The notes beneath the pieces were generated by a model, which was given only the letters and a program-made list of their open reading frames with translations, did no database searches and was not told where the DNA came from. DNA of 64,000 bases from an uncultured bacterium (GTDB lineage Bacteria > Patescibacteriota > Minisyncoccia > Phycocordibacterales > Phycocordibacteraceae). Positions 6,491 to 59,530 of the stretch are shown here, piece after piece. Position numbers and translations under genes: made by a program. Numbering within the stretch: the first letter of the stretch is position 1; the number at the start of each line of letters is the position of its first letter. The stretch covers positions 38,787-102,786 of the forward strand of contig CAVXAH010000001.1 of assembly GCA_963759775.1 (NCBI GenBank), written 5' to 3'.

Positions 6491-8388
<1,898 letters not shown>

Positions 8389-8465: not shown

Positions 8466-9554
8466 ATGGCTAAGGACTACTACTCAGTGCTGGGAGTTGA
8501 TAAGAAGGCAAGTACGGACGATATTAAGAAGGCGTTCCGCAAACTTGCTCACAAATACCATCCGGACAAGGGCGACGGGGACGAAGCGAAATTTAAAGAA
8601 GTAACGGAGGCGTACAGCGTCCTTGCGGACGAAAAGAAGCGTCGCGAATACGACACGTACGGTCAGGCATTTGCGGGTGGAGGAAGACGCGGTGGCGCTC
8701 CCGATTTTGGTGGTTTTGATTTTAGCCAGTTCCAACAGGGGTTCGGTAACGGTGGCGTGGAGTTTGACTTCGGAGACGTGTTTGAAGGATTTGGGGACAT
8801 TTTTGGTGGCGGGCGCCGCAGCAACCGCGCGAAGCGCGGTCGTGATATTTCTATTGACCTTGAAGTCACCTTCAAAGAATCCATTTACGGTACGAAGCGC
8901 ACTGTTTTGATAGCGAAAATTGCGACTTGCACCTCCTGCGCAGGCACCGGAGCCAAGTCTGAAACAGAAATGGAGACCTGCAAAACTTGCAATGGTTCAG
9001 GTCGTGTCCACGAGGCAAGGAATTCTATTCTCGGCCAGTTCACGAGCGTGCGCACCTGCGTTATGTGCGACGGGCTCGGAAAGATACCGAAAGAGAAATG
9101 CGCGGAGTGCAAAGGTCATGGCGTTCATCGCAAAGAAGAGGAAATTCAGGTGATGATCCCCGCTGGTCTTGAAAACGGCGAAATGATTCGTCTGCCTGCG
9201 CAAGGCGAAGCAGTGAAGGGCGGTTCTGCCGGTGACCTTTATGTAAAAGTGCATGTTGCGCCACACCCTACGTTTAGAAAGGACGGCAGCAACCTCGTTA
9301 TGGAGCTTCCCGTGAAGCTTACCGACGCGCTCCTTGGGAGCACGGTCTCTATTGAGACACTTGAAGGTAAAACACTTGAGGTGAAGATTCCACAAATGCA
9401 GCGCGCCGAAGAAATACTCCGTGTGAAAGGGAAGGGTGTGTCGTATGAAAACGGACGCGGCGACTTGCTTATCCACGTGCACGCTGCACTCCCGCACAAG
9501 CTCTCCGGTAAAGCGAAGAAGGCGGTAGAGGACCTGAAAGCAGAAGGACTCTAG
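8466..9554 (+). CDS. dnaJ: chaperone DnaJ
   Basis: J-domain with HPD (KYHPDK), G/F-rich linker, four CxxCxGxG zinc-finger repeats, C-terminal domains. Confidence 0.95.
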
Positions 9555-9701
9555 AACCCATTTCAAAATTTCGACACGAGCGGGGCACTGTCTCCGAGGG
9601 GGTCGCGAAGTACGACGGTGCGAGCGTTTCAGGCGTTTTTTGAGCACAAAAATGCCGTACCCGAGAAGGCAGTATCCCGTGAGTGGGTTTTGAAATGGGT
9701 T
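9555..9701. repeat. about 147-bp intergenic element with 14-bp terminal inverted repeat AACCCATTTCAAAA (family D, copy 1)
   Basis: about 85% identical to 51107-51246; internal conserved hairpin ggcgtttttt-gagcac-aaaaa(a)cgcc with a G-U compatible substitution. Confidence 0.7.
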
Positions 9702-9737
9702 CTAAAAGCCGCACCCGCGGTGAGTTAGAATATATGC

Positions 9738-10259: not shown

Positions 10260-10302
10260 TCAGCCCGCCTCTTGTGCTCCGTGGTATATTTTTGTCATGA
10301 AT

Positions 10303-10417
10303 CCCGTTAGAAATCGCGGACGCCGTCGAAGCCGTAAAGCGGGTTTTTTTACTAACCTTAATCGGATAGGGTTCGGTCGTGCAGTTACCTGCGTGTCCGC
10401 GTCCTATTTCTAACGGG
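10303..10417. repeat. MITE-like element (family A), TIR CCCGTTAGAAAT / ATTTCTAACGGG, abutting the tyrS ATG
   Basis: 12-bp perfect TIR extended by a covarying stem (atcgcggacgc / gcgtgtccgcg); internal TAATCGGATAGGG core shared, in inverted orientation, with 49096-49198. Confidence 0.7.
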
Positions 10418-11670
10418 ATGAACATCGCTGAGGATTTGAAGGCGCGAGGGCTCGTGGAGCACTCATCTGCTGATGTCGCCACCATTCTTGGCACCCCGCG
10501 TACGGTGTACCTCGGCATAGACCCCACTGCCGACTCACTCCACGTCGGGCACTTAGTTCCCATTCTTTTTATGAAGCGGCTTGCCGCGGCAGGTCATAAG
10601 CTTGTCTTTTTGGTTGGGGGCGGTACCGGCATGATTGGCGATCCGAAAGAGAAAGGGGAGCGCGTACTGCTTGATGAGAAAACCATAAGTAAAAATACGG
10701 AGGCTCTCAAAAAACAACTTGAAGACATTTTGGGACGCTTGCCATTCAAAATGGTAGACAACGCCACATGGCTCTCTAAGGTCCGTCTTGTGCCATTCCT
10801 TCGCGACATAGGAAAACACTTCACCGTAAACGACCTCGTAAAGCGCGACCTCATAGCAAAACGCCTTGCAACTCCGGATGAGAGTATTTCGTACACTGAA
10901 TTCACCTACTCACTTCTCCAGGCCTATGATTATTTGGAATTAAATACTAAATACCACTGCGATCTTCAGGTTGGGGCTTCGGACCAATGGACGAACATTC
11001 TTTCGGGTGTTGACCTTATCCGCAAGAAAAAGGAAAAGAAGCGTTCGCGCTCACGGTTCCTTTGGTTACTGACGCGAGCGGCAAAAAGTTTGGGAAATCC
11101 GAAGGAAATGCAGTATGGCTTGACCCTGAGAAGACATCTCCGTACCAGTTCTATCAGTTTTGGCTTGGCTTACCGGACGAAGGCATAGAAAAGTATCTCA
11201 AGATTTATACTACTCTTCCGCTTGGAGACATTGAGGCACTTATGGAGAAGCATCGCGCGGCTCCACAAGAGCGCGAGGCGCAAGAGGTGCTTGCGCGTTT
11301 CGCGACTGAGTCGTTGCATGGCCCAGCAAATACCGCAGAAGCGGCGGCGGCAACCGATGCGCTTTTTGGCGGACGCTCTCTTGAAAGCCTTAGTCGCGAC
11401 GAGCGTGAGGCGGTCATACGAGAAGTCCCATCCCTCGCACTTTCAAAGAAAGAACTTGAGGCAGGGTATCCACTTACTGAAGCACTAGTGGGAGGTAAGC
11501 TTGCTTCCTCAAAGTCCGATGCGCGCCGACTTATAGAAGGGAAGGCGGTTACTCTAAGCGGGCTGTTAATCGAAAATGCAGATCAAAAACTCTATCCGGG
11601 CGACCTCAGTGGCGGCCTCGCACTCATTCGCAAAGGCAAGCGCGATGTGCTCGTTTTGGTTTTGAAATAA
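10418..11670 (+). CDS. tyrS: tyrosyl-tRNA synthetase, apparent frameshift near 11030-11040 (A-run)
   Basis: class I HIGH motif (LHVGHL), KFGKSEGN (KMSKS-like), C-terminal S4 domain; pieces 10418-11188 and 11062-11670 colinear with TyrRS; start taken as MNIAEDLKARGLVE at 10418. Confidence 0.9.
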
Positions 11671-11699: not shown

Positions 11700-11783
11700 G
11701 CGTCGGTAGGTAAGTGGTCAAAACACGCACGCTGTAAACGTGCTGCCCTCGCGGCTTCGGAGGTTCGAATCCTCCCCGGCGCA
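11700..11783 (+). tRNA. tRNA-Tyr (anticodon GTA), type II with long variable arm; CCA not encoded
   Basis: acceptor stem GCGTCGG/CCGGCGC (one G-U), anticodon stem GCACG/CGTGC with loop CTGTAAA, T-arm GGAGG-TTCGAAT-CCTCC; D-arm pairing weak. Confidence 0.7.
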
Positions 11784-11798
11784 CACAAAAAAGGACGT

Positions 11799-11828
11799 CC
11801 CGAGCGTGAGCTCGGGCGTTTCTTTTTG
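11799..11828 (+). terminator. rho-independent terminator after tRNA-Tyr
   Basis: cccgagc-gtga-gctcggg followed by cgtttcttttt. Confidence 0.6.
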
Positions 11829-11833
11829 TGGCA

Positions 11834-11850
11834 GCCGGGGAGGATTCGAA
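11834..11850. repeat. inverted 17-nt copy of the tRNA-Tyr T-arm/acceptor 3' segment
   Basis: gccggggaggattcgaa is the exact reverse complement of ttcgaatcctccccggc at 11764-11780. Confidence 0.8.
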
Positions 11851-12198
11851 GAGACGGAGCGGGGTACCCATTCAGCAGAATGGGTCGCGAGGCGCGGACA
11901 CGACCAAACCCAAGCGACGGCGAGGGTTTGAGTTGCGGAAGAAAAGTGTACTCACGGTCCAATCCCGGCGCTCCGCCCGCGCGGTTACGCGTCGGGCGCT
12001 GGAGCCTATGCCGCTCTCTATGCACGGTTTTGTTGGCGGGGGGTTGCGGAGCGAGGGCACGTAGCTTCGCAAGGTCGGAGCCTGACGAGGCGAGACGGGG
12101 TCGCGGAATCCGCCAGCAGGCGGATATCTGTGACAGAAGCTTGAAAAAGGAATGGAGCGGCAGGGCGAGGGTCGATTTTGGGTTATACTGAAAACTAT

Positions 12199-12996
12199 AT
12201 GGCCACGGCTACACTTACAAAAAACCTTAAACGACCTGCTCCAAAAAATACGGATTCTTTTGATAACTTTTTAAACGAAATAATTTGTGGTGATGTTATG
12301 GATGTGCTGAAAAAGATCCCTGACGGATCAATTGATATTGTCGTCACATCACCTCCCTATAATCTCAAAAACTCTACTGGCAACGGAATGAAAGATGGTC
12401 GTGGCGGTAAATGGGCAAACGCGGCACTTCAAAAAGGATATTCACATCATCATGACTGTATGCCTCACGGTGAGTATGTTCAATGGCAGAGAAATTGTTT
12501 GGCAGAAATGTTAAGAATCGTCCCGGACGATGGTGCAATCTTTTATAATCACAAATGGCGTGTACAAAACGGATTACTACAGGACCGTCAAGATATTGTG
12601 GAGGGTTTACCTGTACGCCAAATCATAATCTGGCGCAGAAAAGGCGGCTTCAATTTTAATCCCGGATATTTCGTGCCCACCTATGAAGTTATCTATCTCA
12701 TCGCCAAAAAAGATTTTAGACTTGCCCCCAAAGCAAATGGTCATGGTGATGTGTGGGAGTTCACGCAAGAAATGAATAATGATCATCCAGCAGCTTTCCC
12801 CATTGATTTGATCGATAGAATTATTGCTTCTACAAACGCGAAGACCGTTTTAGATCCTTTCATGGGTTCTGGCACCACTGCCATTTCAGCCATAAATAAT
12901 GGTCGTCACTATGTTGGTATCGAAATCTCGCCTGAATACTGCGAAATGGCAGAGAAGAGAATAAAAGACCACAAATCCCAAATTAAACTTTGGTAA
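12199..12996 (+). CDS. DNA methyltransferase, beta-class (motif IV SPPY precedes motif I FxGxG); N4-cytosine or N6-adenine
   Basis: VVTSPPYNL then DPFMGSGTT; about 40% GC versus about 55% for flanks; ATG at 12199 preferred over the TTG at 12178 used by the ORF track. Confidence 0.85.
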   Translation: MATATLTKNLKRPAPKNTDSFDNFLNEIICGDVMDVLKKIPDGSIDIVVTSPPYNLKNSTGNGMKDGRGGKWANAALQKGYSHHHDCMPHGEYVQWQRNCLAEMLRIVPDDGAIFYNHKWRVQNGLLQDRQDIVEGLPVRQIIIWRRKGGFNFNPGYFVPTYEVIYLIAKKDFRLAPKANGHGDVWEFTQEMNNDHPAAFPIDLIDRIIASTNAKTVLDPFMGSGTTAISAINNGRHYVGIEISPEYCEMAEKRIKDHKSQIKLW

Positions 12997-13000
12997 TACT

Positions 13001-13798
13001 ATGAAAAAGAAATCGGTTATCTATACCAAACCATCTCTTATCGCAAAACTAAAAGAAATTTCAGCGACGGGATGGATTCCAAATGCTCGTCACGGCAATG
13101 CTGGCGGTATTGGTAATACACTTGAGGATTTGCTCGGTATCAAAGAAAACAATTTGCCAATCCCAAATGCCGCAGAATGGGAACTAAAAACACAAAGAGC
13201 AAACACGACTTCACTCACTACTCTTTTTCACATAGAACCGTCGCCGAGAGCCATTGGCTTTGTGCCAAAAGTGCTTCTGCCGATGTACGGTTGGGCTCAT
13301 CAAGAGGATGGAAAGAAATATCCAAAAGGAGAAAAGAGTTTCCGGCAGACGATACATGGACAATCACCGAGCGACCGAGGATTTAAGGTCGTTATAGATC
13401 GCAAGGAAGAAAAGGTCCTTATCTCTTTTGACGCAGGAGGCGTGGATATAAGACACAAGAAATGGCTAACGACAGTTAAAAAGCGCATAGGGCTTACGGA
13501 ATTAAATCCACAGCCTTATTGGGGCTTTGATGATCTTGAGCATAAGGCAGGAACAAAACTACTCAATTCTTTTTACGTGCAGGCGGAAGTGAAAATTGAA
13601 GAGAAAAAAGAATTCTATCACTACACGAAAGTGATGATGCTTCAGAAGTTCAGCTTTGAGGGATTTCTCAAAGCACTTGAAGAAGGCAAGGTTCTCGTAG
13701 ATTTTGATGCTCGAACGGGACACAACCATGGAACCAAGTTTCGCCTACGCCAGGATTGTTTACCCATGTTGTACGAGAAAATAACGAAAATCCTATGA
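13001..13798 (+). CDS. Type II restriction endonuclease, MutH/MvaI-BcnI-like PD-(D/E)XK fold
   Basis: 265 aa, 5 bp downstream of the MTase; ...IPNAAEWELKT resembles the MutH catalytic (D/E)-X-K segment; size matches MvaI/BcnI family; AT-rich like the MTase. Confidence 0.55.
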   Translation: MKKKSVIYTKPSLIAKLKEISATGWIPNARHGNAGGIGNTLEDLLGIKENNLPIPNAAEWELKTQRANTTSLTTLFHIEPSPRAIGFVPKVLLPMYGWAHQEDGKKYPKGEKSFRQTIHGQSPSDRGFKVVIDRKEEKVLISFDAGGVDIRHKKWLTTVKKRIGLTELNPQPYWGFDDLEHKAGTKLLNSFYVQAEVKIEEKKEFYHYTKVMMLQKFSFEGFLKALEEGKVLVDFDARTGHNHGTKFRLRQDCLPMLYEKITKIL

Positions 13799-31268: not shown

Positions 31269-31404
31269 CCCTGGGGTACAGCATGGCATTGCTCCTAAGT
31301 GGCTAGCCGTGACGTAGAAATATAGAGATTATTAAATCAATACCGCACGAGGAGCAGAGCGGACATCGGAGCAAAAAGCCACGATGCCATGCTGTCCCAC
31401 GGGG
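31269..31404. repeat. MITE-like element (family C), 21-bp TIR CCCTGGGGTACAGCATGGCAT, directly upstream of the rplI start
   Basis: right end ATGCCATGCTGTCCCACGGGG is a near-perfect reverse complement; second copy at 53369-53500. Confidence 0.7.
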
Positions 31405-31446
31405 CATAGTCAGGCTATCCTAACCGTTTAAACGCCAAAAGGCAAC

Positions 31447-47362: not shown

Positions 47363-49095
47363 AGTGAGGAGGGCGTAGTGGCACGGTCGGGCGGTACGTC
47401 GTAGTAATTAATCAGGAAGTGAGTCAGGTTCATGAAGGTAGAAGTGAGTGTTTCGGATGCGTAGCGAACCCCTTGCGGATCGTTGGTGTAAAGGAGAATG
47501 ATAAACCGCGGCGCGTACGAAGGAAAGTAGCCGAAGAAGGAGTGGAAGTACCTATCTTTGTAGTACCCGCCTCCGGGCATGGTGAGCTGGGCAGTTCCGG
47601 TCTTTGCCGCAACAGACATAGACGCTATTTTTTCCTTTCCCTGCGCAAGGTCAAAGTCAACGACGTGAGTAAGCATTCCCGCGACCGTGCGCACTGCCTC
47701 CGGAGAAAACACCTCCACTGTCTCCGGTGGCTCAAGAGTCCGCGTGATGCCGGTATCAAGCTTAATGGCGCGCGTGAGGTAGGGCCGAGCCATTGCCCCG
47801 TCGTTTGCGAGCGCACTTAAGGCACTTATCATTTGCACCGGTGTTACCGCGATACCTTGGCCAAATGAGGCGGTGTCGTAACCTACCTGCTGCGGCCTTG
47901 AGATGTTTTGGAGAAGACTTCCCGTTTCACTTGGAAGGTCAATGTGTGTCTTCTCGCCAAAGAGGGTCGTGAAGTACGTTCGGAGTCGCTCTTTGCCGAG
48001 TTGTCGCCCAACCCAGGAGGCGCCGAGGTTCAAAGATTCCGACAAAATTTGCTGTACCGCTACCCTTCCGCGCGCCTTGAGGTCAAAGTTGCAAATAGTG
48101 TAGGTATCCACGTCCATACAACCCGTATCGTTATAGGTTGAGTCGGCGGTTATCGCATCCGCATCAAGGCCAGCGGCCACAGTGAGTGGCTTCACTATGG
48201 AGCCAAATTCATACACATGCTCCACAAGCGGATTCCCGAGAACCGCCGGGTCAACACTTGAGAGATCGTTCGGGTTGTAGGTCGGGACCGTGAGAAGAGC
48301 GAGAACGGCTCCTGTGCGCGGGTCCATAATGATTCCGCCTGTTTCTTTGCTCTTAAATTTCGCGTGCACTGCTTTAATTTCACTCTCAAGCCGAGTCGCA
48401 ACCGCGGGCTCAATGGTGGTTACCACATTGCCCTCACGTACGTTTTTTGTATCAATGAGTAAATCCCCCGCGCCTGAGAAAAGGGTTGCGAAGAAATTTT
48501 TATAAAGAGAGTCACCGCTGCGCGCGAGTGTGTGGTCATAGTACGACTCAAGACCTGTTCGTCCGGAAAGACTGTCGCCGCTACCATAGGAAACGATGCC
48601 AACTGACTGTGCCGCAAGCGTCCCTCCAGGATACTCTCTCCAGCGCTCACGAAGCACTATGACGCCGGGTATTTTAAGCGCGGCGAGCGCGCGACCTTCC
48701 TCTTCCAAAAGATGATGCGCTATCTCAACATACACACGCTCGGACCGTAGAGATGCGGCGAGGAATACCTCACGGTCAATGGTAGAGGTGGCGAGTGCGG
48801 TCGTAAGGGAGTTGTAAGCGGCTTCGGGGTCTTTAAGGGTCTGGGGATTCATTGCGAGCAAAAACCCCGTTTGAAGGGTCGCGGCTGAAATGAGTGCTCC
48901 GTCCTTGCGAGTGAAATAAATAGACCCGCGATCAAAAAGTCCACTTATGCCGCCGGAAAACTGCCGCTCGGCCTTGAGCGCATACGTTTCTCCCTGCACG
49001 ATTTGGACAATGTAGAGGCGTCCGGCGATAAGGATCGCGATGATAAGAATTCCGAGAAATACAAGTCGGATACGGAGTCTAAACTGCGCGCGCAT
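47359..49095 (-). CDS. ftsI: penicillin-binding protein (transpeptidase; FtsI/PBP3-like)
   Basis: SxxK (SIVK), KTGTA motifs, N-terminal TM; dcw position before murF. Confidence 0.9.
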   Translation of the reverse strand: MRAQFRLRIRLVFLGILIIAILIAGRLYIVQIVQGETYALKAERQFSGGISGLFDRGSIYFTRKDGALISAATLQTGFLLAMNPQTLKDPEAAYNSLTTALATSTIDREVFLAASLRSERVYVEIAHHLLEEEGRALAALKIPGVIVLRERWREYPGGTLAAQSVGIVSYGSGDSLSGRTGLESYYDHTLARSGDSLYKNFFATLFSGAGDLLIDTKNVREGNVVTTIEPAVATRLESEIKAVHAKFKSKETGGIIMDPRTGAVLALLTVPTYNPNDLSSVDPAVLGNPLVEHVYEFGSIVKPLTVAAGLDADAITADSTYNDTGCMDVDTYTICNFDLKARGRVAVQQILSESLNLGASWVGRQLGKERLRTYFTTLFGEKTHIDLPSETGSLLQNISRPQQVGYDTASFGQGIAVTPVQMISALSALANDGAMARPYLTRAIKLDTGITRTLEPPETVEVFSPEAVRTVAGMLTHVVDFDLAQGKEKIASMSVAAKTGTAQLTMPGGGYYKDRYFHSFFGYFPSYAPRFIILLYTNDPQGVRYASETLTSTFMNLTHFLINYYDVPPDRATTPSSL

Positions 49096-49198
49096 CCCGT
49101 TAGAAATAGAACACGAACACTCTCGAAGTGTTGTGCCCTATCCGATTAGGTCCAATAATCATATGCCTCATCATATCGTGTTCGTGATTTCTAACGGG
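49096..49198. repeat. MITE-like element (family A), TIR CCCGTTAGAAAT / ATTTCTAACGGG, abutting the ftsI start codon
   Basis: 12-bp perfect TIRs, covarying sub-terminal stem (agaacacgaaca / tgttcgtgat), internal CCCTATCCGATTAGG core inverted relative to 10303-10417. Confidence 0.7.
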
Positions 49199-49213
49199 AC
49201 GCATTGTACAAGA

Positions 49214-50973: not shown

Positions 50974-51069
50974 AAATCCAGCTCGTCCCACTTTCTCCCA
51001 CTAGCAGTGAAGTATATGACACTCTATCCCACCTGACGAATGAGGTTATCCCCACCCCAACATGCAACG

Positions 51070-51096
51070 AAAAACCGCGCCTTTGACGCGGTTTTT
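51070..51096. terminator. bidirectional terminator (serves lysK on the minus strand)
   Basis: aaaaaccgcg-cctttga-cgcggttttt. Confidence 0.65.
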
Positions 51097-51106
51097 CGTC
51101 AAAATC

Positions 51107-51246
51107 TATTTCAAAACCTCAACACGAGCGGGGCACTGCATCCGAGGGGGTCGCGAAGTTGGGCGGTGCGAGCGTTTCAGGCGTTTTTTGAGCACAAAAA
51201 ACGCCGTACCTGAGGAGGTAGTGGCCCGTGAGTGGGTTTTGAAATA
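51107..51246. repeat. about 140-bp element with 12-bp TIR TATTTCAAAACC (family D, copy 2), ending 4 nt from the lysK stop
   Basis: about 85% identity with 9555-9701 including the perfect hairpin ggcgtttttt-gagcac-aaaaaacgcc. Confidence 0.7.
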
Positions 51247-51250
51247 AGCA

Positions 51251-52816
51251 TTAGGCGGAAGCCTCTTTGAGACGTTTTAAAACAAAATCTCGCGGAAGGA
51301 CCGAAAGAAACCACCCGGCTTTCGGCCCGGAGTCGCGCGCAAGGAAAAGCTGATAGAGCGCGACAAATAAATCTTTGGGCGCAATCGGTACTTCTGTCTT
51401 TAATTCATGGAGTCGCGCGTGGACTTCTTCTCCGGTTTTCTTCCCTCCTTCAAAAAACTCTGCAAGCAAAGAGCTCGCTTTCTTCTGCGCATCCGAAAGT
51501 GTAATCTCGGGCATTGTCTCTTGCAGTTCGTAGCGGAATTCTCCCGGTGCGTACGTCGTGAGCCAAAACTTCGCATACCGGGCACGTTCCCGCAGATAAT
51601 GCTTTTCTGTCTCGGTAAGTTGGCTTCCTTTTACGCGCTCCGCTTCCACCACGAGGTCAAGGTGCGGCATTTGCACAATGAACGCGACCTCCTTGAAGCG
51701 AAGCTGCCACGGGGATGGAAGTTCCGCGCGGTCTTCGGGAAGTTCGCAGAGCGCGAAAAGCCGCGAGTAGTCATCGGCCTTCCCTTGTCGCACGCCTTCT
51801 CCCAGGTCGTCATACCAGTCGTACATGCGGGGCACCGAATCTCCTTGCGGATCTACATCAATTTGCTCGCGAATGTCTTTACCGATGAGCACAAGACGAA
51901 AAACTTGTGGGGGGAAAAGATCGGCCATTTCTTTTGCAGAAGAACCACGTCCCTTCGAGGAAGACATCTTTTTTCCTCCAACTAAAAAGAATTCATAGGG
52001 GGTGTCGAAGGGCGGTTCAACATTGAAGATCTCGCGACAAATATGGTTCGCCACATCTCGCGAACCACCTTTTGTTGAATGATCTTTGCCTCCACCTTCA
52101 ATATCAACACCCAGCGCGACCCACTTGGCTGCCCAGTCCACTTTCCAGAAAAACTTCGACCTTCCCCCATAAGGTGCAACACGGCCCGAATGCCCGCACG
52201 GAACACAGCCATCGGGAGAACGATCGCAGTTGTAGGCAACGGTCTTGCCATCAAAGTCAGATGCACGTGTCGTCATCATCTTTCCGCATTTTTCGCACAC
52301 AACTGAAATAGGGAGCCATGACTCTTCCTTTACCGAACCCGAAATTTCTTTCAAAATTCGGCGCACATCCGCAGCTTTTTCAAGCGCTGTTTTAATGAGA
52401 GAGTCCATCGCTCCGGAGCGGTAAAGCTCTGTCGCGCGATAGTATTCTGCTTTAAAACCAGCTTTTTGCTGAACCTGCAAGAATTCTGCCGCGAAAAATT
52501 CCGCGTAATTTGCATATCCATCCTCTGGGCTCGGCACACTGAACAAAGGTTTTCCTAGATGTTCTTTAAATTTTTCTTGATCGAGATATGCAGGAACGGT
52601 ATCTAGGGCATCGAAATCATTAAATTCGTATTTAAAGGTGTTCGCTATTCCATATTCAGATAAGACTTCCGAAACAAGCCCATGAACAGCCACACTTCTC
52701 ATTGAGCCCACATGGACTCGGCCCGACATCGTCTTTTCATCACGGATAAGCAGTTTTTTCCCGCCTTTTGCGCGCGTATTTTGTATTTCTTTTGCAATCC
52801 GATCAGCCCAAAACAT
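51251..52816 (-). CDS. lysK: lysyl-tRNA synthetase, class I
   Basis: HVGSMRSV (HIGH-like) and KMSSSKG (KMSKS) motifs; about 520 aa class I LysRS architecture. Confidence 0.9.
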   Translation of the reverse strand: MFWADRIAKEIQNTRAKGGKKLLIRDEKTMSGRVHVGSMRSVAVHGLVSEVLSEYGIANTFKYEFNDFDALDTVPAYLDQEKFKEHLGKPLFSVPSPEDGYANYAEFFAAEFLQVQQKAGFKAEYYRATELYRSGAMDSLIKTALEKAADVRRILKEISGSVKEESWLPISVVCEKCGKMMTTRASDFDGKTVAYNCDRSPDGCVPCGHSGRVAPYGGRSKFFWKVDWAAKWVALGVDIEGGGKDHSTKGGSRDVANHICREIFNVEPPFDTPYEFFLVGGKKMSSSKGRGSSAKEMADLFPPQVFRLVLIGKDIREQIDVDPQGDSVPRMYDWYDDLGEGVRQGKADDYSRLFALCELPEDRAELPSPWQLRFKEVAFIVQMPHLDLVVEAERVKGSQLTETEKHYLRERARYAKFWLTTYAPGEFRYELQETMPEITLSDAQKKASSLLAEFFEGGKKTGEEVHARLHELKTEVPIAPKDLFVALYQLFLARDSGPKAGWFLSVLPRDFVLKRLKEASA

Positions 52817-53320: not shown

Positions 53321-53368
53321 ACGTGTGCTGTTTGCGGGCATTGTACGTGCTCTGCTCTGAAGCGCAAG

Positions 53369-53500
53369 CCCTGGGGTACAACATGGCATCGTGTCTTTAG
53401 CTCCAACGATCAAAAGCTATAAACCTTTTGTTTTTATGTGACGTCTGGCAACTGAAATAAACGTAGGACACGAAGAGTAATGCCATGTTGTCCCACGGGG
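53369..53500. repeat. MITE-like element (family C) copy 2, TIR CCCTGGGGTACAACATGGCAT / ATGCCATGTTGTCCCACGGGG, 48 nt upstream of greA
   Basis: TIRs match 31269-31404; internal sequence differs but keeps sub-terminal complementarity. Confidence 0.7.
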
Positions 53501-53524
53501 CAAGCCCATAAGGAAAAATCGATT

Positions 53525-59078: not shown

Positions 59079-59471
59079 ATGAAAAAAGTGTGCCTACGGG
59101 CAGGCTTCATGCTGGGTTTGATCTTTGGAGTTGTTGGCTGTGCGTCGGAAGAGTGGAAGCCGACGCCGGAAAAGGAGTGGCGCATGGCAAACCTGACGGC
59201 GAGCGATGGCGAAGTCTGGTGCGAAGACATCGGCGCCGCACTCAAGTTTGCGGTGGCTTCTGACGAAGACTCCACGAGGTTTGCTCCCCTCGGGTATGCA
59301 TACGGGTGCGGGAAGTTCACGGTAGAAACCCCTCTTCAGGTCGTCTTCCACGACTGCAAAGCCGTTGATGGATTTCCCGATGATCCACGGGAAGTGTGTC
59401 CCGCAATGATCTTTCAAAGCATGGGCGCACCACGAAAGGCGTACATTGTGGTCTATCCTGAGCGGTATTGA
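59079..59471 (+). CDS. hypothetical lipoprotein
   Basis: lipobox-like LIFGVVGC signal peptide, RBS aagggag. Confidence 0.5.
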   Translation: MKKVCLRAGFMLGLIFGVVGCASEEWKPTPEKEWRMANLTASDGEVWCEDIGAALKFAVASDEDSTRFAPLGYAYGCGKFTVETPLQVVFHDCKAVDGFPDDPREVCPAMIFQSMGAPRKAYIVVYPERY

Positions 59472-59487
59472 TACGCGAGTATCGAAA

Positions 59488-59530
59488 AGGGCTGTCTTTC
59501 AAGATGAAAGACAGCCCTTATGTTTTTATA
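59488..59530 (+). terminator. rho-independent terminator
   Basis: aagggctgtctttc-aaga-tgaaagacagccctt followed by atgttttt. Confidence 0.75.

Follow-up and report, generated by a model that had tools for sequence, protein, structure and literature searches.

A structured intergenic repeat with a conserved three-way junction in genomes of the Patescibacteria

Interspersed structured intergenic repeats are well known as a kind, the REP/REPIN, ERIC, Correia and RPE families being examples. REPINs and BIMEs are non-autonomous and are mobilised by RAYT (Y1 HUH) transposases, the enzyme being encoded elsewhere in a single copy. A REPIN consists of two inverted REP units of about 25 nt with conserved ends (GTAG-type), and it usually occurs in tens to hundreds of copies per genome. 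In attC sites the base of the stem is conserved (R''/R' RYYYAAC / GTTRRRY) and the apex is variable. The genomes of CPR/Patescibacteria are small and streamlined, with few known repeats or non-coding RNAs, and a search of the literature for MITEs or structured intergenic RNAs of the CPR returned nothing relevant. The repeat described here is new in that a conserved three-way-junction head is borne on lineage-specific stems, in a CPR host, and is absent from Rfam; as a motif it is solid and supported by covariation, on the basis of six sequences.

The family comprises six members (c1 to c6) in three genomes, three of them (c1, c2 and c5) in the window, that is, the whole 64-kb stretch of DNA that was analysed. 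The first-pass annotation had reported c1 after dnaJ and c2 between lysK and mraZ at about 85% identity; both are present where it placed them, with extents of 9552-9704 and 51104-51249, and their mean identity in a MAFFT alignment is 88%. A repeat finder gave 90% over 98 nt and 88% over 49 nt, and an exact 31-mer common to the two copies occurs twice in the window against 0.00 expected from 100 shuffles. The likeness ceases at the element borders in the MAFFT alignment, which indicates a discrete repeat unit and not a segmental duplication. No further close copy of c1 or c2 was found within the window by nhmmer. A Logan contig carrying an identical DnaJ stops 91 nt past the dnaJ stop, within the exact block shared by c1 and c2, which is the behaviour of a k-mer assembler at repeats, and the element thus breaks short-read assemblies.

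Copy c1 (9552-9704, + strand) is a whole hairpin element with a 19-bp terminal stem TAGAACCCATTTCAAAATT / GGTTTTGAAATGGGTTCTA. Its palindrome, TAGAACCCATTTCAAAA / TTTTGAAATGGGTTCTA, is longer than initially stated and takes in the dnaJ stop codon TAG (9552-9554, + strand) as its first three bases. The copy occupies most of the 183-nt spacer between dnaJ and a gene for a 173-aa membrane protein, the ATG of which (9738) lies 34 nt from its end. In c2 (51104-51249, + strand) the closing stem pairs 51107-51118 with 51235-51246, and the terminal pairings quoted earlier for both copies are present. The lysK stop codon (TAA on the - strand, 51251-51253) is 4 nt from this closing stem, and the spacing from the lysK stop to ATTTCAAAA in c2 equals that from the dnaJ stop to ATTTCAAAA in c1. 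Outside the core, c1 and c2 have about 40 nt more per arm, which is partly common to c3 (ACACGAGC..., CCGAGG). The inner hairpin GGCGTTTTTT-GAGCAC-AAAAAACGCC was correctly given for c2 and incorrectly for c1, in which the 3' arm is AAAAATGCC; the change there, taken at first as G-to-T, is a C-to-T plus one absent A, and it does yield a G-U pair on the + strand only. Such one-base differences call for some care, since dnaK (6503-8385) has two frameshifts against the protein of a relative (L013; tblastn frames 2/3/1) and tyrS (10418-11667) has one (frames 2/1), these being either assembly indels or pseudogenes of essential genes, so that one-base run-length differences in the window may be assembly errors.

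Copy c2 is antisense to both lysK and mraZ. Between it and the mraZ promoter we read from the sequence a terminator-like hairpin, AAAAACCGCG-CCTTTGA-CGCGGTTTTT, with an A-run and a T-run (51070-51096); the site scan placed a terminator-like site overlapping this hairpin and a promoter-like site for mraZ at 51039-51011. The hairpin probably terminates lysK, in which case c2, beginning about 10 nt past it, would sit reversed in the lysK 3' UTR. The segment 50900-51040, upstream of mraZ and beside the promoter-like site, has several GTGGGA / TCCCAC repeats, which resemble MraZ operator repeats; the motif also occurs upstream of mraZ in the related genome GCA_035525885.1 (L015). There the lysK-mraZ spacer (L015:11570-12219) is 650 nt long, with no called gene and no match to the family.

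The 61-aa ORF (51062-51247) noted over c2 exists, and c1 does not keep it, having no start codon and a frame shift in that frame; no relatives of this ORF were found among 5.8 billion proteins. A protein-coding reading of the element was rejected on the broken frame in c1 and on the want of a homologue in the databases. Neither copy preserves an ORF and both fold better than shuffled sequences, which bears out the earlier preference for structure over coding: the minimum free energy (MFE) on the + strand is -65.7 kcal/mol for c1 (z -5.3) and -69.4 kcal/mol for c2 (z -6.6), with 0 of 200 shuffles as good in either case.

The other members were obtained by successively wider searches. An nhmmer profile of c1 and c2 detected c3 (E 6.7e-8) in a related Paceibacterota MAG, GCA_035525885.1 (L015:2549-2690, minus strand), where it takes up the entire spacer between frr and an M50 peptidase gene and overlaps the frr stop codon. 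A degenerate pattern from c1-c3, run over 241 million metagenome records, gave 12 matches, 11 of which represent one unrelated coding sequence; the single real one, c4 (L022:13566-13674), comes from a 775-kb metagenome contig that is unrelated, where it is flanked by pilC with its terminator on one side and by a pilin gene on the other. The core common to the earlier members served for a covariance model (R1), which was built without c5 and found this divergent member (subtype B) at 12063-12141 on the + strand of the window with 25.1 bits (E 2.5e-5 to 6e-5). Model R2, which additionally included c5 and was built without c6, found c6 in GCA_035525885.1 (L015:18766-18851) with 24.8 bits (E 6e-5). 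The c1 core scores 81.8-83.7 bits. The two divergent members have the 10-mer CGGGGTCGCG in common, and folded alone c5 recovers P2 and P3 of the predicted structure and c6 only P3. Weaker model matches were set aside: L022:5732-5824 falls inside an ORF, L029:17359-17430 has no AGCA hairpin, and window 59431-59529 and others score below 13 bits.

Copy c5 lies in a non-coding stretch of 390 nt, with tRNA-Tyr on one side and a restriction-modification pair on the other. The 3' half of this tRNA is repeated in inverted form (11764-11800 / 11814-11850, 37-nt arms) and after it lie about 330 nt of non-coding DNA, rich in GC (64%) and with a fold z of -4.0, in which c5 is contained; past c5 come a low-GC N4/N6 DNA methylase gene and an MvaI/BcnI-family endonuclease gene, and the region 11700-13798 looks like an island inserted at the tRNA. 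We considered a tmRNA or other large RNA in the GC-rich stretch, where ARAGORN finds none, and a conserved 330-nt RNA spanning c5, with which the failure of the c5 and c6 flanks to align is inconsistent. At 11860-11935 the hairpins TACCCATTC-AGCA-GAATGGGT and ACCC-AA-GC-GACG-GC-GA-GGGT display the signature loops of the family in reverse order, with no covariance-model match; possibly this is a unit ahead of c5 that has degenerated or been rearranged.

All six members have in common a three-way junction of about 65 nt formed by the helices P1, P2 and P3. P1, the closing stem, differs in sequence from lineage to lineage. In P2 a lower stem of 3 bp is followed by an internal loop 5'-GNA / GA-3' bounded by invariant C-G and G-C pairs (C-GNA-G / C-GA-G), a 4-bp upper stem and an apical loop that is mostly GACG, the exceptions being GUCG in c4, GGCG in c2 and a longer loop in c6. 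P3 is a hairpin of 10-15 bp with an invariant AGCA loop and, in c3-c6, a bulged A on the 3' side. In c1 the core junction spans 9598-9662 on the + strand, P1 pairing 9598-9600 with 9660-9662, P2 occupying 9604-9626 (internal loop GAA/GA, GACG loop at 9614-9617) and P3 9632-9656 (AGCA loop at 9643-9646), and the MFE fold of the single sequence reproduces the consensus junction. The c2 core, placed by covariance-model alignment at 51146-51211 (+ strand), has P2 at 51152-51174, where two mismatches break the apical stem, and P3 at 51180-51205, a perfect 11-bp hairpin with the AGCA loop. In c5, P1 is AGCTTC/GAAGCT, P2 (12074-12096) has a GGA/GA internal loop and a GACG loop, and P3 (12100-12134) has the AGCA loop and the bulged A at 12126. 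The stem of c4 is 23 bp long and of unrelated sequence, and the closing stems of c5 and c6 are just 5-6 bp. The terminal closing stem stressed by the first-pass annotation thus shows the least conservation within the family; what is conserved is the apical three-way junction.

The junction is supported by covariation. With four sequences, 96% of the cells are paired and 7 of 20 pairs are changed on both sides; with six, 95.7% of the cells are paired and both-side changes occur in 18 of the 20 core pairs, figures to be read with the provisos that c1 and c2 are close relatives and not independent and that the two larger alignments had been fitted to the model. Sliding the register by 1-3 columns leaves only 35-60% paired, and the observed values were reached in 0 of 500 shuffles. 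The clearest case is P3, in which the arms AUUUUUC/GAAAAAU (c3, c4), AUCCGCC/GGCGGAU (c5) and AAAUCUC/GAGAUUU (c6) surround the same AGCA loop. The check for compensatory changes between c1 and c2 proposed with the original description came out in favour of structure: RNAalifold of the + strand gave 46 pairs, 7 with one-sided changes kept through G-U pairing, 1 compensatory and 0 broken. In a less biased test, in which the structure of one copy was imposed on the other, the + strand kept 8 and broke 2 (from c2) or kept 9 and broke 8 (from c1), and the reverse strand kept 4 and broke 7 (from c2) or kept 7 and broke 8 (from c1).

The + strand had been singled out on account of a G-U pair in one hairpin; it is the better-folding strand, and not in that hairpin alone. 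The RNAalifold consensus of c1 and c2 is -55.7 kcal/mol on the + strand against -36.95 on the reverse, and the MFE of the element is -71.5 against -55.3 kcal/mol for c1 and -70.4 against -53.7 for c2. Over the element itself the strand difference is 16.2, 16.7, 3.9, 9.3 and 11.1 kcal/mol in c1 to c5, respectively; with flanks it is 21.8 kcal/mol in c5 (-54.6, z -4.2, on the + strand against -32.8, z -1.3, on the - strand) and 10.4 kcal/mol in c6. The RNA fold is therefore better on the same homology-defined strand in all six members, and in c1-c5 this strand is also richer in G than in C, even at c2, where the surrounding GC skew runs the other way. Under DNA energy parameters the asymmetry of c1 shrinks to 4 kcal/mol, which makes the bias mainly a G-U, RNA-type signal. 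An explanation by replication strand was discarded, as the GC skew tracks gene orientation and places no origin or terminus.

These properties would suit a host-functional structured RNA, either a trans-acting or protein-binding small RNA in paralogous copies or a cis-acting UTR module, and the C-GNA-G / C-GA-G internal loop, the AGCA loop and the bulged A would then tentatively form its binding site. We hold this to be a possible explanation with the odds clearly against it. It accounts for stems that covary around invariant unpaired nucleotides in three genomes and two subtypes, for the common RNA strand of all six members with a much weaker bias under DNA parameters, for the excess of G even against the local skew in c2, and for the position of four of the six copies, which are in sense orientation 34-135 nt upstream of a gene. 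The arrangement of the copies speaks against it. None of the copies is in synteny from one genome to another, and the orthologous sites lack the element; c2 and c3 each run antisense to the gene on either side, without visible means of transcription; c2 and c6 begin 10-20 nt past a terminator hairpin, with no promoter/terminator pattern found; P2 of c2 is broken and its loop altered; the downstream genes are unrelated; and the family is absent from four related loci sets.

The first-pass annotation had named two outcomes that would count against its proposal, namely an Rfam family explaining the repeat and many additional copies lacking structural conservation. All six members are without a match in Rfam 15, and the additional copies c3-c6 do conserve the structure. 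At the Rfam gathering threshold the window yields two tRNAs only, and no member was overlapped in permissive searches with E up to 10 around c1, c2 and c5 and up to 1 at the c3, c4 and c6 loci. The suggestion of a small RNA fared less well, as no promoter or terminator was found around c1 and c2, c2 is antisense, no copy is syntenic and the core of c2 is damaged. Framing c1 or c2 we found no promoter-like or terminator-like site, with a consensus scan that may not suit CPR promoters; an independent small-RNA gene was accordingly rejected on the lack of a promoter and terminator at c1 and c2, the weak part of the case, and of a conserved position in five related loci sets. A riboswitch or cis-regulatory leader was likewise dismissed, c2 and c3 being antisense to both neighbours and the genes downstream of the others (a membrane protein, a pilin, a DNA methylase and a protein of no known function for c1, c4, c5 and c6) being unrelated. 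The over-representation of TTTTGAAAT in the window (10 occurrences against 1.5 expected) was judged a coincidence, as the six that lie elsewhere than in an element all fall within coding sequence, and the match at the tyrS end, GGTTTTGAAATAA, is made up of the conserved VLK-stop codons.

The distribution of the family is patchy. DnaJ and class I LysRS assign the window, which comes from a contig of 594,792 bp, to a Paceibacterota / Kaiserbacteria-like group of the Patescibacteria. The nearest public relatives share only 84-85% identity in DnaJ and 77% in LysRS, and the spacer from dnaJ to the next gene, 183 nt here, is element-free and 16, 78 and 45 nt long in three of them. One of these dnaJ spacers (L014:11084-11161, GCA_964455225.1) has short repeats of its own, built of several CATGACTCA and CATGAGTCAAGA-type units and not related to the element. 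In four relatives the model matched nothing in the lysK-mraZ spacer, and the frr-M50 spacer filled by c3 in L015 is 15 nt in L016. Genome GCA_035525885.1, with c3 and c6, has no c1, c2 or c5 at the corresponding sites, and no copy was found in three other related genomes (L014/L016, L029 and L030, about 83 kb in total). There are no syntenic copies between genomes, none of five related loci sets conserves the position, and orientation relative to the neighbouring genes is mixed, c1, c4, c5 and c6 being sense and c2 and c3 antisense. Copy c1 looks intact and recent and c2 partly degraded, to judge from the broken upper stem of P2, the altered loop and the loss of the outer 7 bp of the c1 stem. 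Non-syntenic, patchy spread with empty orthologous sites speaks for turnover and not for a fixed gene, and the occurrence of the element at different places in related CPR/Paceibacteria makes a small mobile element likelier than a housekeeping RNA gene. A 19-mer exact scan of GTDB representative genomes returned 12 matches of 19-24 nt, all by chance, a 23-mer exact scan of metagenomes none, and five viral scans nothing or one chance match (L031); BLAST against plasmids and phages gave no match. Together, the exact-pattern public scans and the BLAST searches suggest that the family is rare or fast-evolving.

One form of mobility to be weighed is that of a classical MITE, in which a DDE transposase (e.g. 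of IS630/Tc1 type) would bind terminal inverted repeats and duplicate a TA, c1 having been inserted in the TA of a dnaJ TAA stop. In c1 the arrangement TA|GAACCCATTTCAAAA...TTTTGAAATGGGTTC|TA, a perfect 15-bp inverted repeat with TA/TA flanks, is what this predicts, and so are the non-coding length of 140-150 bp, the empty orthologous sites and a dnaJ ending in TAA in one relative (L014). As the whole element is a hairpin, its 'inverted repeat' ends are not independent evidence for a MITE, and no transposase was found among 40 ORFs of the window. In c2 the left flank is CA, not TA (CA/TA, against TA/TA at c1), and the outer 7 bp have been lost; for the remaining copies no clear duplication is seen at the flanks, the spacers of relatives being too diverged for exact borders. 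The termini are the least conserved part: the closing-stem ends are ATTTCAAAA/TTTTGAAAT in c1 and c2, AACGAG/CTCGTT in c3, GAATAAAC/GTTTATTC in c4, AGCTTC/GAAGCT in c5 and AATCG/CGATT in c6, so that those of c3-c6 are unrelated to one another and unlike those of c1 and c2, and the apex is conserved with covariation. MITEs are characterised by terminal inverted repeats conserved among members; the ends found here are unrelated across c1/c2, c3, c4, c5 and c6, and we consider a classical MITE improbable.

The element might instead be a 3'-end or intercistronic stem-loop retained by the host in the manner of REP or ERIC sequences, and would then stabilise the transcript, be cut by RNase III or terminate transcription, whichever way it faces. 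Copies c1, c2 and c3 lie at 0-4 nt from, or overlap, the stop codons of dnaJ, lysK and frr, c2 has the lysK stop on one side and the terminator-like hairpin of lysK on the other, the stems of 19-23 bp are nearly perfect, and the hairpin forms in either orientation. A terminator is contradicted by the sequences following the stems, which contain no T-runs; no U-tract lies past the closing stem on either strand, hence the element is not an intrinsic terminator, and the site scan, run on both strands, put no terminator-like site at the closing stems of c1 and c2. Moreover, c4, c5 and c6 are not at gene 3' ends (a separate terminator comes first, or the upstream gene is far away), the conservation of the loops and of one strand is more than a simple stabiliser needs, and relatives manage without the element at the same sites. 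Such a role is, in our judgement, very improbable as an explanation of the family.

We favour the reading that the element is a non-autonomous mobile or duplicative structured repeat of Paceibacterota, recognised through its junction and not through terminal inverted repeats, and assign it a probability of about 0.5. New copies would arise by duplication or transposition, inserting between the genes of compact operons, facing either way and often tight against a stop codon. The junction (the C-GNA-G / C-GA-G loop and GACG loop of P2, the AGCA loop and bulged A of P3) would be the part retained over long periods and recognised in trans, as folded RNA or single-stranded DNA, by the enzyme that propagates the element, and single copies would decay afterwards. 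A conserved junction with variable ends points to recognition of the folded strand. A copy that is co-transcribed would add a very stable stem of at least 19 bp to a 3' UTR or intercistronic RNA. Several observations weigh against a mobile repeat. No transposase, integrase or reverse transcriptase was found among the 40 ORFs of the window, which are nearly all housekeeping genes apart from one MvaI/BcnI-type restriction-modification pair; copy number appears low, the exact-pattern scans having given one further copy; and there is no clear target-site duplication, TA/TA occurring at c1 only. Covariation and invariant loops across lineages would equally be expected of a host-functional RNA, and a purely DNA-level parasite does not explain the consistent RNA-strand asymmetry.

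On a more speculative level, the junction could be a new functional RNA module, whether a small ribozyme or an RNA that serves an enzyme encoded in trans as scaffold or for recognition. It would spread through CPR genomes as RNA or by an RNA-dependent mechanism of its own and be defined by the invariant C-GNA-G / C-GA-G loop, the GACG and AGCA loops and the bulged A, the long lineage-specific stems acting as handles for RNase III-type processing; we think this unlikely. If mobile, the repeat would be one of the few structured, covariation-backed elements described for the uncultivated CPR radiation, and its partner protein could reveal a new mobilisation or RNA-binding activity. It also inflates spacers by the essential genes dnaJ, lysK and frr, which matters for MAG annotation and operon prediction.

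Other repeats were seen in the window. A second interspersed repeat of about 125 nt, with arms CCCGTTAGAAAT / ATTTCTAACGGG and centre TAATCGGATAGGG, occurs at 10297-10420 (+), between the 173-aa membrane-protein gene and tyrS, where relatives have an ABC-transporter gene, and at 49093-49204 (-), just upstream of an ftsI-type PBP gene and after a short preceding gene of the operon. The greA-PBP2 spacer holds an inverted pair (53357-53398 / 53480-53512) of a third, short repeat, AAAGCCACGATGCCATGCTGTCCCACGGGGC with its complement, and another copy of this repeat lies at 31375-31405.

Comparison with described systems, made from their general features, places the family near several of them and within none. 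Like many Rfam candidate motifs it is a short, multi-stem, covarying motif of unassigned function and narrow phylogenetic range, but it has no match in Rfam 15 and its gene neighbourhood is not constant, unlike that of most such motifs. With ERIC, Correia, RUP, BOX and RPE-type repeats it shares an imperfect intergenic palindrome of 100-150 nt, found in either orientation and often co-transcribed, as well as presence/absence polymorphism between relatives, and the TA flanks of c1 are as in Correia. Those families are defined by conserved termini and overall sequence, whereas here the host is a reduced CPR genome, and to our knowledge none of them is described as having a covarying multi-helix junction with invariant loops. 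The attC sites, IS200/IS605 ends and sso origins are likewise strand-specific hairpins of 57-150 nt that may start right after a stop codon; long attC sites may carry branched apical structures, and they too keep structure over sequence. The strand bias here, however, nearly vanishes with DNA energy parameters, unlike that of attC and other single-stranded DNA signals. The c1 ends (TAGAACC... / ...GGTTCTA) misfit the R boxes and the apex is conserved in place of the base, the reverse of attC, so that the element is not an attC site; the neighbours dnaJ, lysK and mraZ are housekeeping genes and not cassettes, and no integrase was found in the window. The likeness to REPINs and BIMEs extends to non-coding, intergenic, long hairpins with compensatory changes from selection on structure, to a non-autonomous nature and to strand specificity through recognition of a folded single strand. 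The differences are that REPINs usually number in the tens to hundreds per genome, against three copies in 64 kb and almost none in public scans here, and that their conservation is at the ends; with no REP-like short unit, apical conservation and no Y1 transposase/RAYT gene found in the window, membership of the REP or REPIN-RAYT systems was rejected. In conserving its junction and varying its ends, the element follows the reverse of the logic of MITEs and REPs.
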